Shown piece by piece: positions 3,394 through 17,475 of a stretch of DNA of 64,000 nucleotides. The notes beneath the pieces were generated by a model. That model did not search any database and was not told where the DNA came from. It was given only the letters and a program-made list of their open reading frames with translations. The stretch comes from Alphaproteobacteria bacterium (GTDB taxonomy: Bacteria; Pseudomonadota; Alphaproteobacteria; Bin95). Where the stretch lies: contig CBDBGH010000003.1 of assembly GCA_965205265.1 (NCBI GenBank), forward strand, positions 4,704,001-4,768,000, read 5' to 3'. Each line of letters begins with the position of its first letter. The first letter of the stretch is position 1. A program made the position numbers and the translations under genes.

Positions 3394-3530
3394 CGATCGG
3401 GAGCAGGCCCCGGTGTCTCCTCGCCAATCCCGTCATCGGCAGCGTCAGCAGCATCTGCCGCCTCAGCACCGTCCTCGTCGCGATCATCCCGCCCGAGGAC
3501 ATCGCAGACATCGCCTTCGAACGCATCCAT
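3394..3530 (-). pseudogene. N-terminal stub of an acidic protein, fused head-on to the hsdR fragment
   Basis: GGAGGA RBS before ATG at 3530; [33 protein letters not shown] then runs into the antisense of hsdR. Confidence 0.35.
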
Positions 3531-15314: not shown

Positions 15315-15704
15315 ATGCTGAACATGAACCGGGCGACGCTGGTCGGCCATGCCGGGCGCGCCCCCGAACTTCACGGTCTGAGGAACGGCGGCAAGGCAGC
15401 GACATTCAGCCTCGCCACTGCCGAACGGTGGAAGGACCGGGACGGCAAGGCCGTCGAGGCCACGCAATGGCATCGCGTCGTCGTGTACGGCCCTGGCGCC
15501 GAGACGGTCGGCAGGATGCTGAAGAAGGGCGATGCGGTGATGGTCGAGAGCCTGCCCCGGACCCGATCCGGGGGCCGCATCGCCACCCGGACGTACCAGG
15601 CCCGCGACGGCGTCGAGCGCAGCGTCACCGAGATCGTCGTCTCGGGGCCGCAGGCCATGGTGAACGTGCTGGCGAGGCGGCGGACGGAGGATGGCGGCCG
15701 ATGA
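15315..15704 (+). CDS. ssb: Single-stranded DNA-binding protein with an 8-aa insertion
   Basis: MNRATLVGHAGRAPE, FSLAT.E.WKD, TQWHRVV, KKGD.V.VE[SLPRTRSG]GRI.TR.Y; no acidic DDDIPF tail. Confidence 0.92.
   Translation: MLNMNRATLVGHAGRAPELHGLRNGGKAATFSLATAERWKDRDGKAVEATQWHRVVVYGPGAETVGRMLKKGDAVMVESLPRTRSGGRIATRTYQARDGVERSVTEIVVSGPQAMVNVLARRRTEDGGR
15549..15572 (+). repeat. 24-bp palindromic element, copy 1 (in frame in ssb)
   Basis: AGCCTGCCCCGGACCCGATCCGGG interrupts the conserved VEGR motif. Confidence 0.85.
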
Positions 15705-16696
15705 CCCAGCGCGTCCTTCCCCTGGCGGCTCTTCTTCTGGCGATGCTGTGGTCGGCGCCGTCGGCGGCGCAGACCTGCACCGGGCGGTTCGTCAACCCGA
15801 TCTCGGACGTGTGCTGGGAGTGCCTGTTCCCGATCTCGATCGGGCCGGTGACCGTCGGCAGCGCCTCGGGCGCGCCGGACACGCCCAACCCGTCCTCGCC
15901 GGTCTGCGTCTGCGGCTCGCCCATCCCCCGCATCGGGCTGGCGCTCGGGGTGTGGGAGCCGGCAAGGCTGGTGGACGCGACCCGCGCGCCGTGGTGCTTC
16001 CCCAATCTCGGCGGCCTCGCCATCGACCCCGGCCTGCCCGCCGGGCGCGGCCGCACCGGCGCCTCGGGCGGCGACGGCGCGGCCGGCTCGGTCTGGCACG
16101 CGCACTGGTACAGGTATCCGCTGCTGTCGTGGATCGGCGCCCTGCTCGACCTCGGCTGCCTGGAGGGCGGCTCGCTCGACATCGCCTGGGTCTCCGAACT
16201 CGATCCGGCCTGGCTCGACGACGAGTTGTCGTTCCTCTTGAACCCCGAGGCGGCGCTGTTCGCCGGCCTGCCGGCCCAGGCCGCCTGCGCCGCCGACTGC
16301 GCGGCCGCGACCGCGGCCCTGCCGCTCGATGCCCTGTTCTGGTGCGCCGGCTGCCAGGGCGGGATGTACCCCCTGACCGGCAATGTCGCCGCCCATGTCG
16401 GCGGTGTGCAGGCCTCGCTGCTGGCGGCCCAGCGGCTGGTCTACCGGCTGCACCGCACGGGGATCGCCTGGGGCACGTCCGGATCCGCCGCGCTCTGCGG
16501 GCGCTACCCGATGCCGGTGATGAAGAAGTCGCAGTACCGCTGGCAGATGACCCAGCCGGTGCCGGCCACGACGCCGATGACCGGCTGCAACCCGACGGGG
16601 CGCTCCTCGGTGCTCTGGGAGACGCTGCGCGAACTGCCGGTGGCGGGCGAGAACTTCGGCTACCTGCTGTGGAGGAAACGCAATTGCTGCACCTGA
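15701..16696 (+). CDS. traU: TraU
   Basis: CTGRFVNPISDVCWECLFPISIG, WEPARLVD, SELDPAW.DD, WRKRNCC. Confidence 0.96.
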   Translation: MTQRVLPLAALLLAMLWSAPSAAQTCTGRFVNPISDVCWECLFPISIGPVTVGSASGAPDTPNPSSPVCVCGSPIPRIGLALGVWEPARLVDATRAPWCFPNLGGLAIDPGLPAGRGRTGASGGDGAAGSVWHAHWYRYPLLSWIGALLDLGCLEGGSLDIAWVSELDPAWLDDELSFLLNPEAALFAGLPAQAACAADCAAATAALPLDALFWCAGCQGGMYPLTGNVAAHVGGVQASLLAAQRLVYRLHRTGIAWGTSGSAALCGRYPMPVMKKSQYRWQMTQPVPATTPMTGCNPTGRSSVLWETLRELPVAGENFGYLLWRKRNCCT

Positions 16697-16749
16697 CCGA
16701 AAGCCTCGGACAGCGCACGCAAGCCCTCGTCCGGGACGGGCTCGCCGCG

Positions 16750-17475
16750 ATGCTCGTTCTCGCGCTCTGCTGCGGGCCGGCGCTGGCCGGGGATCCTGCG
16801 CCCTCTCCGGAAGACCGGGCGCGCAGCCTGGCCGACGAGGCGCTGCGCCGGGCGGGCGAAGATGGCAATGACGCGCTGGGCGCCTGGACGCGCGGCGTCA
16901 TCGGCCGGGCGCTGGAACGCGCGGGAGAGACCGCGCGACGGACAGTTCCCGGAACGTCCGGGCCTTCCGCCGCGCCGCTGGCGGCCGAACGGCATGCGGT
17001 GGCGACCGGCACGGGCCTCTCGGTCCGGCCGAACTCCGGCGAGGTGATCGTCTTCCTCAGCCTGTCGGTTCCGCCCGCGAGCTGGCGGCAATGGGCGGAC
17101 GACGCGGCACGGGCGGATGTTCCTCTGGTGCTGCGCGGCGTGGGCGAAGGCGGCTTGCCCGAGACCGCCAAACTGATCGCCGCACGCCTCGACGGGGCGG
17201 AGGCCGGGAGCCTGCCCCGGGCTCGATCCGGGGTCGCCATCGATCCCCGGCTGTTCCGCCTGTTCGGGGTGACACGGGTCCCGGCGGTGGTCGTCGCGCC
17301 CGGCGGCGTGCCGCCGTGCGCGAGCCGTGGCTGCGCCGGGGACCCGCCGCCGGACCATGACCTGATCGCGGGGAACATCGGCCTGATGGCGGCGCTGGAA
17401 GCGGTCGTCGCCCAGGGCGAAGCCGGGCGCCACACCGCGCGCCGGCATCTCGAACGGCTGCGCAGGGAGGATTGA
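16750..17475 (+). CDS. trbC: TrbC (F-type) with an 8-aa insertion
   Basis: IVFLSLSVP, LVLRG, G[SLPRARSG]VAIDPRLFRLFGVTRVPAVV, GNI.L..ALE. Confidence 0.88.
   Translation: MLVLALCCGPALAGDPAPSPEDRARSLADEALRRAGEDGNDALGAWTRGVIGRALERAGETARRTVPGTSGPSAAPLAAERHAVATGTGLSVRPNSGEVIVFLSLSVPPASWRQWADDAARADVPLVLRGVGEGGLPETAKLIAARLDGAEAGSLPRARSGVAIDPRLFRLFGVTRVPAVVVAPGGVPPCASRGCAGDPPPDHDLIAGNIGLMAALEAVVAQGEAGRHTARRHLERLRRED
17209..17232 (+). repeat. 24-bp palindromic element, copy 2 (in frame in trbC)
   Basis: AGCCTGCCCCGGGCTCGATCCGGG; 22/24 identical to copy 1. Confidence 0.85.

Follow-up and report, generated by a model that had tools for sequence, protein, structure and literature searches.

The window analyzed here, a 64,000-nt stretch of an alphaproteobacterial genome, contains an F-type conjugative element in which Pfam matches give the operon order TrbI, S26 peptidase, TraW, SSB, TraU, TrbC, TraN, TraF, and TraH. 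Two of these genes carry almost the same 24-mer on the plus strand. Copy 1 (15549 to 15572) lies in ssb (15315 to 15704, plus strand), an open reading frame of 129 amino acids that matches Pfam SSB (PF00436, E = 7.5e-26). Copy 2 (17209 to 17232) lies in trbC (16750 to 17475, plus strand), which encodes an F-type pilin-assembly protein (TrbC_Ftype, PF09673, E = 1.1e-21), and it falls inside the TrbC_Ftype domain. The start of trbC is uncertain and could be the ATG at 16750 or an in-frame TTG at 16684.

The two 24-mers agree at 22 of 24 positions and fit the pattern AGCCTGCCCCGG-N3-CGATCCGGG. Both begin at a codon boundary and are read in frame, as the peptides SLPRTRSG in SSB and SLPRARSG in TrbC. 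A sequence-only reading of the window had picked out this pair, with its common orientation and reading frame, and was correct on each of these points. When up to three mismatches were allowed, a scan of the window returned these two matches and no others, against an expectation of 0.04; none of 100 dinucleotide shuffles yielded two or more.

Copy 1 consists of the head AGCCTG followed by CCCCGG, the loop ACCCGAT, and CCGGG, with the flanking G15573 completing the stem; copy 2 is a loop variant (GCTCGAT), and in both hairpins the first flanking base supplies the last stem G. Folded as single-stranded DNA, copy 1 reaches -8.5 kcal/mol with a 7-bp stem and a 5-nt loop, and copy 2 reaches -6.7 kcal/mol. 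The hairpin of copy 1 is itself nested in the 10-pair stem of a host hairpin in ssb (15529 to 15583, plus strand; arms 15529 to 15538 and 15574 to 15583), whose loop received the copy and whose single-stranded DNA fold reaches -20 kcal/mol. This arrangement agrees with the preference for hairpin loops that we describe below across sites. In an AF2 model of the SSB, residues 79 to 86 form a low-confidence loop between strands 74 to 79 and 89 to 95.

Precise gaps at empty sites

Two paralogous ICEs in the same genome, with proteins 63 to 66% identical, show clean gaps of 8 amino acids (24 nt) where the window copies lie. The gap in trbC is evident against the paralogues at C3:2574 kb and 3268 kb, and the 24 nt of the ssb copy are likewise missing in two in-genome paralogues. 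Excision of the inserts rejoins VE/GRI in SSB and A/GVAIDP in TrbC, restoring the conserved motifs that the sequence-only reading had thought were interrupted. Among the best 120 SSB cluster representatives, 4 could not be parsed. Of the remaining 116, an identical SLPRTRSG is present in 15 (these proteins are 63 to 100% identical overall), and the other 101 lack the insert, with no residue at that position.

Gaps of exactly 24 nt relative to empty homologous sites were found at at least eight loci, including TrbC, SSB, an IS5 transposase, two helicase paralogues, a 5-copy repeat of this genome, and others. Only the register of 24 nt proposed by the earlier reading fits every alignment, and all of them show a gain of 24 nt with no duplicated flank bases. 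The insertions are distributed as a mosaic over three paralogous ICEs of one genome: the window ICE is filled in ssb and trbC and empty in traF and trwC, the ICE at 2565 to 2587 kb is empty in ssb and trbC and filled in traF and trwC, and the ICE at 3267 kb is empty in ssb and trbC and filled in traF. The proposal of a very short hairpin element that adds eight residues to proteins is thus upheld by clean gaps at many independent loci. We conclude that the window 24-mers are probably copies of a non-autonomous 24-nt insertion element, pasted in precisely and without target duplication. This 24-base hairpin appears to be among the smallest mobile DNA elements known.

Distribution, inheritance, and reading frame

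A scan of the whole genome with up to three mismatches gave 16 matches, versus 1 for the reversed pattern, and we count about 12 copies in this genome. Matches were present in 15 of 16 genomes of the genus versus 0 of 20 genomes of two sister genera, and in 3 of 400 other genomes sampled from the phylum; in these scans of the genus, its sister genera, and the phylum sample, the reversed-pattern control gave 0 matches everywhere. The earlier reading had supposed that further copies would exist, and they do so both in the genome and in its relatives. Genus genomes have 0 to 14 matches each (0 or 1 copy in the small ones), except for 58 in G015. An apparent burst in G015 was ruled out: of 50 core matches, 28 belong to a single IS66-family element and 6 to a single IS5-type element, whose insert-bearing transposases occur in 28 and 6 copies, respectively.

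The exact 24-mer occurs in at least 100 stretches of GTDB species genomes, mostly with unrelated flanks. Among the matches listed, the GC content of these stretches is 0.46 to 0.78, and exact copies with unrelated flanks come from Alpha-, Beta-, and Gammaproteobacteria, Desulfobacterota, Chloroflexi, and Rhodothermales. Stem bases are invariant across copies, variation being confined to loop positions. Copies are single or in direct tandem, with no inverted doublets, and many are intergenic and within other repeats. Chance or artefact is ruled out by the shuffles, the reversed-pattern controls, and the complete isolate genomes with unrelated flanks. Five exact matches were also seen in 2.9 million viral contigs.

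No Rfam family overlapped the element in 20 intergenic carrier loci. At one of these loci (L159), the sole above-threshold match was an unrelated tRNA about 140 nt away; another match, antisense to that tRNA, was below threshold. The acceptor strand plus T-arm of a tRNA, taken in reverse, has the same layout of 7+5+7+5 nt, and the element is 4 mismatches away from a tRNA gene at C3:5099931. The T-loop of tRNAs has a conserved T54 and A58, both of which are missing from the would-be T-loop, and we therefore treat the likeness as a coincidence.

Other genomes share the trbC, ssb, and relaxase insertions in their orthologous ICE genes, and the filled trbC site was found in another genome's ICE (L121, L029). 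The copies in the window's ssb and trbC are probably old insertions that came with the inherited ICE and did not arise in this host. Four public runs, available as contigs, contained the filled form with no omission of the 24 nt, as far as contigs, which are blind to rare variants, can tell; this genome gave no direct sign of current movement.

These observations bear on the hypothesis that the genus copies are merely passengers, that is, that the element was once active in other organisms, where it entered ICE and IS genes, and reached the genus by horizontal transfer, with nothing moving it here. The shared ICE insertions, whose flanks are 68 to 88% identical, fit such a history, as do the predominance of one IS66 and one IS5 element in G015, the near absence of copies from small genomes of the genus, and the lack of a candidate enzyme (see below). 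We nevertheless regard it as somewhat unlikely for the genus copies as a whole. One copy of a repeat present in at least five copies (92% identical) is filled in this genome, and two helicase paralogues are filled at different positions while a third is empty. The filling of the repeat and of the helicases could predate the arrival of the element in this genome. As to the two window copies, the passenger hypothesis and the reading that we prefer, a mobile 24-nt element, overlap.

Orthologous copies are conserved at 22 or 23 of 24 positions, versus 68 to 88% for their flanks. This difference might reflect selection on a function of the DNA itself, or hot spots that were hit repeatedly, in place of neutral passengers. 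One could go further and postulate that the 24-mer is no transposon at all and is instead a module under selection as DNA or as peptide (for example, a hairpin bound by a protein or an 8-residue loop that is of use), spread by recombination and kept by selection. This conservation, the invariant stems with variable loop positions and the identical SLPRTRSG of the 15 SSBs agree with this idea. It is, however, quite improbable, given that the two orientations encode unrelated peptides, that two further frames are used, that many copies are intergenic inside other repeats, and that the host genes are functionally unrelated. Nor can homologous recombination place a 24-mer at sites whose flanks are unrelated.

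Of about 19 coding events supported by Pfam, 17 are in phase 0 and 2 are in other frames. The element is found in both orientations and is read as SLPRTRSG (sense) or PGSGPGQA (inverted). In proxy genes of this genome, 69% of AG^G motifs and 83% of SAG^GKC motifs have their insertion point at a codon boundary, and the constant reading frame can be attributed to the target motif (below) together with GC-rich codon usage. A shared frame as a property of the element is thus not supported, and a frame set by selection on the peptide is an explanation that, with two events in other frames, is not needed. The length of 24 nt is divisible by 3, the element is free of stop codons in every frame, and AG^G mostly coincides with a codon boundary in GC-rich genes; insertions into genes therefore usually encode SLPRTRSG or PGSGPGQA as an extra surface loop and survive. 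The insert-bearing IS66-family and IS5-type transposases of G015 and the loop position in the SSB model point to tolerance of the added residues.

The hosts are mostly genes of mobile elements (relaxase, TrbC, TraF, SSB, and IS transposases). In the ICEs of this genome, copies are found in ssb, trbC, traF (twice), trwC, upstream of a coupling-protein gene, and in AAA_34 helicases. Functionally unrelated hosts include GltB, a tRNA synthetase, Ddl, IspD, and transposases, housekeeping genes among them. The earlier reading had suggested a host-specific tag or scar on incoming conjugative DNA. This idea is not supported: the same insertions occur in orthologous ICE genes elsewhere, the identical 24-mer is present in several phyla and in housekeeping genes, and its orientation relative to the tra genes is mixed.

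Target sites and the search for a mobilizing enzyme

We grouped insertion sites into 130 independent flank classes, comprising the listed GTDB exact matches, the genus loci, and this genome. Across these classes the target approximates (C/G)AG^G(G/T)C, with base frequencies of 0.62 for A at -2, 0.68 for G at -1, and 0.92 for G at +1. Perfect hairpins with stems of at least 7 bp have the junction in their loop at 21 of 130 sites, versus 31 of 1,228 control positions (p = 1e-9), so that landing in a hairpin loop is six-fold commoner than at control positions in this explicit inverted-repeat scan. We used the scan in place of a loop test based on MFE, in which flanks were more structured than controls (-22.7 versus -19.5 kcal/mol, p = 6e-6) and the junction was in a loop at 13% of sites versus 7.7% of controls (p = 0.059). 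About 78% of sites are without an obvious host hairpin (stem of at least 6 bp). The minimum and maximum of the cumulative GC skew of C3 are just 1.1 Mb apart and give no usable origin or terminus for replication-strand bias.

In another genus (g41), a single host repeat occurs in 8 filled and 31 empty copies in G383 and in 9 filled and 28 empty copies in G356, with the insertion invariably at GCGAA^GTGG. Filled and empty copies have equally diverse flanks, whereas the 24-mers differ by at most one base. The g41 insertions look the most recent and suggest recent, site-specific activity.

The sequence-only reading had proposed a RAYT or IS200-like mobilizer, which would make the element an ordinary REP/REPIN family, cut and pasted as single-stranded DNA by a RAYT (Y1 HUH). 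Several features are in keeping with this proposal: a conserved 5' head joined to a GC-rich palindrome, insertion 3' of a short specific sequence without target duplication, and a near-identical hairpin in a longer intergenic repeat of the genome, GTCA-CCCCGGACTTGATCCGGGG-TCCA, that is found as inverted pairs. Y1_Tnp (PF01797) is also present in 4 of 5 distant carrier genomes, and Methylotetracoccus oryzae has a RAYT-like gene with a copy about 540 nt away. That copy, however, sits in the loop of a local GTAG-type REP, which makes it a guest there and not a repeat belonging to the RAYT, and 12 of 13 Y1 loci had no copy of the element within about 2.5 kb. PF01797 had 0 matches in this 99%-complete genome (the control was positive in 6 of 14 genomes) and hit a single genome among the 16 of the genus, there only partially; it was absent from the complete carrier G383 and present in the noncarriers G116 and G232. 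Taken with the low copy number per genome, the many intragenic copies, and their occurrence singly or in direct tandem and not as inverted doublets, this makes mobilization by a RAYT improbable. IS110, the other enzyme that the earlier reading had named, fails to separate carriers from noncarriers.

We also considered TrwC, the relaxase of the ICEs. As an HUH enzyme acting on hairpins in single-stranded DNA, it could paste the element during conjugative processing of single-stranded DNA. Such an activity would account for the excess in ICE genes, where most copies of this genome are found, and TrwC matches occur in 15 of 16 genus genomes (3 to 25 each) versus 0 of 6 genomes of the sister genera. 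This correlation within the genus is confounded, since ICEs are also carriers. TrwC was absent from all 10 other genomes tested, 8 of which are carriers (the 5 distant carriers and G356, G383, and G276; the noncarriers were G116 and G232), although in g41 the insertions look most recent, and G001 has 5 TrwC matches and no element. With the mixed orientation relative to the tra operon added, a role for TrwC appears very improbable. No candidate mobilizing enzyme was found, and neither RAYT nor TrwC tracks the element.

The mobile element that we favor has a 5' head, AGCCTG(C), followed by a 5-bp stem and a 7-nt loop, with a sixth pair formed with the first flanking G. Insertion may take place into single-stranded or extruded DNA, with catalysis presumably provided in trans by an enzyme that the element does not encode. 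The head may help to pick the target because its CCT(G) is complementary to the target (C)AGG, a complementarity of just 3 to 4 nt that was spotted after the fact. ICEs and insertion sequences would be frequent targets and would then ferry copies between hosts.

Relation to known repeats and implications

The DNA string, its reverse complement, and the two peptides had no match in a text search of the literature, and a keyword search returned related kinds only. We tentatively propose that the 24-mer may represent a previously undescribed class of bacterial mobile DNA: a 24-nt single hairpin, with one sequence across phyla, that is put into hairpin loops and AG^G sites by a widespread function of hosts or mobile elements that is neither RAYT nor relaxase. 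Its 5' head may guide it, it would ride on ICEs and insertion sequences, and it would write a fixed 8-residue loop into relaxases, transposases, and housekeeping enzymes.

The SDR of Nostocaceae, described by Elhai et al. in 2008 (Genome Res 18:1484), are reportedly 21 to 27 nt in size, nested in other repeats, and polymorphic for presence or absence. The size and nesting of our element match this description. In papers citing that work, SDR are about 20 nt long, dispersed, possibly mobile, and in some cases tandem, and the SDR5 family reportedly uses the short palindrome HIP1 as its insertion site (PMC5861425, PMC2884548); according to one such passage, SDR-like repeats were not found outside Nostocaceae (PMC5861425). 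Unlike the SDR, our element has a GC-rich sequence, is found in Proteobacteria and other phyla, and often lies within genes of mobile elements.

The REP-like build suggested by the sequence-only reading, a conserved 5' AGCCTG head with a short GC-rich palindrome, holds, and the element further resembles REP/REPIN sequences in its single-strand hairpin logic and lack of target duplication. It differs in having no cognate RAYT, a low copy number, and no inverted doublets, in being often intragenic, and in being one sequence across phyla and not one per species. REPs are normally extragenic, number hundreds of copies, and mostly form inverted doublets, whereas we found 0 to 14 matches per genome, apart from the mostly IS-borne ones of G015, and about 19 intragenic events. 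REPs can also serve as targets of other elements, as the title of a reference in PMC3116915 indicates.

Repeats that insert in frame into open reading frames and add peptide segments include the Rickettsia RPE and the in-frame MITEs of Coxiella and enterobacteria (RU elements) (PMC5896051, PMC2759123). RPEs and in-frame MITEs are about 100 to 170 bp long with terminal inverted repeats; the present element is a single hairpin of 24 nt with no target duplication. Relative to MITEs in general, the duplication is absent, and the 3' end contains no inverted counterpart of the 5' head. Of the features of IS200/IS605-type (PATE-like) elements, the target motif, the hairpin, and the lack of duplication are present, but there is one hairpin in place of two ends, and Y1 is absent from most carriers.

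In its behavior, the element resembles the GC clusters of yeast mitochondria. Passages on these clusters in PMC8811140 describe short GC-rich palindromes that are regarded as mobile, occur in frame in var1 and are mostly intergenic, have AG or TAG termini, and change mainly in the loop; the title of a 1989 paper cited there names single elements and tandem arrays. Hairpin elements of sponge mitochondria enter coding regions too, according to a passage in PMC2800124. The AG before the insertion, the in-frame copies, the loop-only variation, and the tandem arrays of our element parallel the yeast clusters in behavior only. The yeast clusters, as portrayed in those passages, are organellar and have other sequences and terminal repeats read as target duplications, whereas the present element is bacterial, creates no duplication, has a fixed length of 24 nt, and keeps the same sequence across phyla. 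It would be a bacterial counterpart to the mitochondrial GC clusters.

If its mobility is confirmed, the element would show that 24 nt, less than previously known, is enough for bacterial transposition that is sequence-specific and creates no duplication, and it would point to an unidentified enzyme or to a self-guided mechanism acting on DNA hairpin loops. It may also bear on the recurrence of the same short GC-rich palindromes in unrelated bacteria, and it could be used as a lineage marker for the spread of ICEs and insertion sequences. The element amounts to a natural 8-codon insertion scan of proteins that marks permissive sites; relaxases, transposases, SSB, TrbC, and TraF appear to stay in use despite the extra loop. 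For annotation, the lesson is that an 8-residue motif repeated identically in unrelated proteins can be a DNA parasite instead of a true protein motif.

Two in-frame copies and their empty counterparts

The sequence-only reading described two 24-nt units on the + strand, at 15549-15572 and 17209-17232, as identical at 22 of 24 positions, and both the positions and the identity are correct. With up to 3 mismatches allowed, the window contains no other match (0.04 expected from shuffles). Both start at a codon boundary of a real gene: copy 1 in ssb (15315-15704, + strand; Pfam SSB) and copy 2 in trbC (16750 or 16684 to 17475, + strand; Pfam TrbC_Ftype). The F-type transfer operon runs in the order TrbI, S26 peptidase, TraW, SSB, TraU, TrbC, TraN, TraF, TraH. 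As single-stranded DNA, copy 1 folds into a hairpin (-8.5 kcal/mol) of 7 bp around a loop of 5 nt, and the last pair of its stem borrows the first flanking G. In an AlphaFold model of SSB (mean pLDDT 73), the insert falls within a low-confidence loop joining two strands of the OB fold.

The source genome (G000; 5.7 Mb, 68% GC, 3 contigs) carries two more ICEs of the window's type. Their SSB and TrbC proteins, 63 to 66% identical to those of the window, lack precisely the 8 inserted residues (24 nt), the clean indel that had been predicted. The TraF proteins of these two ICEs contain PG(S/P)GPGQA, the element's opposite-strand reading, which is missing from the window TraF, and the ICE at 2565 kb has a copy in its relaxase that is missing from the window relaxase. 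SLPRTRSG is present unchanged in 15 of the best 120 SSB cluster representatives; the position is vacant in 101, and 4 were unparsable. Alignment of filled and empty homologous sites (with and without the 24 nt) gave a gap of exactly 24 nt in trbC, ssb, an IS5 transposase, a prophage-region gene, two sites of one carrier locus (L065), a G000 repeat (~92% identical copies; 1 filled, 4 empty), and a helicase paralogue. The insertions duplicated none of the flanking bases, and the register first proposed is the only one that fits all cases.

Orthologues of trbC, ssb, and the relaxase in other genomes are filled at the same sites, with flanks 68 to 88% identical and elements 22 to 23/24 identical. 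Hence either the window copies predate their present host or their sites are hot spots. Selection, conversion between copies, or repeated hits could explain why the element is more conserved than its flanks. The public runs of the organism, available as contigs, contain the filled form.

Target site and reading frame

Context frequencies were computed over 130 independent flank classes. Upstream of the junction, position -3 was C (0.46) or G (0.29), position -2 was A (0.62) or G (0.27), and position -1 was G (0.68); downstream, position +1 was G (0.92), position +2 was G (0.48) or T (0.29), and position +3 was C (0.52). The G at +1 is part of the target and completes the element's stem. Perfect hairpins with stems of at least 7 bp enclosed the junction in their loop at 21 of 130 sites versus 31 of 1,228 same-locus control positions (p=1e-9), and those with stems of at least 6 bp did so at 28 of 130 versus 99 of 1,228. 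The ssb insertion site is such a loop.

Many intergenic copies are nested in other short palindromic repeats, and one in Methylotetracoccus oryzae is nested in a GTAG-type REP adjoining a RAYT-like gene. On that contig (L204, 2153-3448), the RAYT-like gene (236 aa) is followed by its own partial duplicate, and the 24-mer (1 mismatch) lies at 3406-3429 in the REP loop; an exact copy 5 kb away (L126) has the same GTAG-type REP loop context. Host palindromes of the forms GTCATTCCCGCGAAA-GCGGGAATCCAG, GGATTGCGG-GTCAAGCCCGCAATGAC, and ...ATGATCCGGAAAA-GTGG...CCGGTTTTCCGAAAAGATCAT recur across very different taxa (loci L099, L103, L139, L146, L160, L164, L170, L180, L189, and others). G000 also has a second, longer intergenic repeat, GTCA-CCCCGGACT(T/C)GATCCGGGG-TCCA..., whose hairpin is almost exactly the element's. 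It occurs as inverted pairs 60 to 100 nt apart (REPIN-like), though G000 lacks a RAYT, at C3:165280/165382, 1245920/1245983, 1345746/1345848, and 5432165/5432266.

Element copies are also nested within other copies and arranged in direct tandem, with four copies in G005, distinguished by the loop alone, and three copies in G383. The G005 array (L090, contig C3, 2423-2518) is head to tail with a period of 24, inside an AAA_34 (Strawberry-notch-like) helicase gene, and its differences are confined to loop positions 3-4. Each of the G000 homologues of this helicase has a single copy, inserted at a different position, and a third paralogue is empty.

Pfam was run on 421 site-spanning open frames, which yielded ~19 independent coding events in or between Pfam domains. 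Seventeen of these events are phase 0, the frame shared by the ssb and trbC copies. In the sense orientation this gives SLPRTRSG (GltB, IS630/IS5/IS66 transposases, TrbC, SSB, AAA_34 helicases, and a metallophosphatase) and in the antisense orientation PGSGPGQA (a class I tRNA synthetase, TrwC, YgjP, an FG-GAP protein, Ddl, IspD, and a relaxase helicase domain). Two events use other frames, TraC (PRIGSGAG) and an IS66 transposase of G015 (PDRVRGRL). In G000 proxy genes, the junction of AG^G coincides with a codon boundary in 69% of occurrences and that of SAG^GKC in 83%, so the frame bias is explained by target choice and codon usage. About half or more of the genes hit are mobile-element genes; among the matches listed from the unbiased exact-match scan, 6 of 12 coding events were in such genes.

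Dispersal and signs of recent, site-specific activity

Further copies had been expected in the genome and its relatives, and they are there. At up to 3 mismatches, G000 has 16 matches (~12 convincing) versus 1 for a reversed control. At up to 2 mismatches, 15 of the 16 genomes of its genus are positive (58 matches in G015, 1 to 14 in each of the others), as are 3 of 24 other families; two sister genera gave no positive among 20 genomes, and the controls were 0. An even phylum sample gave 3 positives in 400 further genomes, two of them in one genus, g41. The exact 24-mer occurs in at least 100 stretches when one genome per GTDB species is searched. Those listed include Rhodanobacter, Lysobacter, Sphingomonadales, Xanthobacteraceae, Ottowia, Ramlibacter, Syntrophobacteraceae, Desulfobacterales, Chloroflexi, Rhodothermales, Bacteroidetes, and others, although MAG labels may be imprecise; their local GC is 0.46 to 0.78, and their flanks differ in nearly all cases. 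Among 2.9 million viral contigs there were only 5 exact matches.

A burst of insertion is not what the 58 matches in G015 represent: an IS66-family transposase gene holds 28 of the 50 core matches and an IS5-type gene 6, and ~12 sites are distinct. The IS66-family gene (L032, which is the same as L046, and 27 other loci) has the 8-residue insert within its DDE domain in 28 copies, and the IS5-type gene has it in 6 (L051 and five others). Both transposases seem to have multiplied after insertion.

All copies examined in g41 share one junction, GCGAA^GTGG, within the loop of a single host repeat, and have the element loop ACNTGAT (ACTTGAT in 14 of 17 loci). In G383, 8 loci of this repeat are filled and 31 copies are empty; in G356 the numbers are 9 and 28 (control 0). 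The flanks of filled copies are as varied as those of empty ones, and the 24-mers are at most 1 base apart. The simplest reading is that a homogeneous element inserted repeatedly into an older, diverged repeat family.

Candidate mobilisers and related systems

The RAYT mobiliser that had been suggested does not fit the genus: PF01797 has no match in G000 and a partial match in 1 of 16 genus genomes (search control positive in 6 of 14 genomes). Of 5 distant carriers, 4 match the profile; within g41, the complete carrier G383 lacks it and two non-carriers have it. IS110, also suggested, does not separate carriers from non-carriers. TrwC relaxase is found in 15 of 16 genus genomes (3 to 25 matches each, 9 in G000) and in none of 6 sister-genus genomes. 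It is missing from all 5 distant carriers and from the 5 genomes tested around g41, three of which are carriers; the best interpretation of its correlation with the element in the genus is that ICEs act as carriers. From the absence of duplication, the short 5' target, the hairpin, and the loop preference, we infer that a trans-acting enzyme would insert the element into single-stranded or extruded DNA. IS200/IS605 elements use guide-target pairing, of which the complementarity of the element's CCT(G) head to the (C)AGG target, only 3 to 4 nt and spotted post hoc, is reminiscent.

The element fails the defining tests of the REP/RAYT and MITE classes. In behavior it is closest to yeast mitochondrial GC clusters, with their in-frame insertions in var1, AG/TAG at the termini, change concentrated in the loop, and tandem arrays (PMC8811140). 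The small dispersed repeats of Nostocaceae, as portrayed in papers that cite their description, are another close likeness. None of the papers searched for the element's sequence and peptides has either. We place it among the very small hairpin mobile repeats, which are a known kind, and rate it as unusual in its fixed 24-nt unit, its single sequence across phyla, its precise duplication-free insertion, its preference for mobile-element genes as hosts, and the finding of no mobiliser among the enzymes examined.

The ICE load of G000 and its genus is unusually heavy. Contig C3 holds at least 3 paralogous F-type/TrwC ICEs (the window at 4704-4768 kb, ~2565-2587 kb, and ~3258-3270 kb), with further TrwC matches at 370, 2383, 3423, 3792, 4355, and 5444 kb. 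In the second ICE, a copy at C3:2567739 (- strand) lies in a divergent intergenic region ~100 nt upstream of a coupling-protein (TrwB-type) gene, which might be where oriT would be expected; no oriT was identified around it. The cumulative GC skew of C3 has its minimum at 4.34 Mb and maximum at 5.45 Mb, only 1.1 Mb apart on a 5.46-Mb contig. Such a spacing would be strange if there were just one pair of replichores; rearrangement or weak skew may account for it. At C3:5099931-5099954, the acceptor and T-arm of a tRNA gene, read on the opposite strand, are 4 mismatches from the element, whose 7+5+7+5 layout matches that of this portion of a tRNA; the likeness is probably a coincidence.
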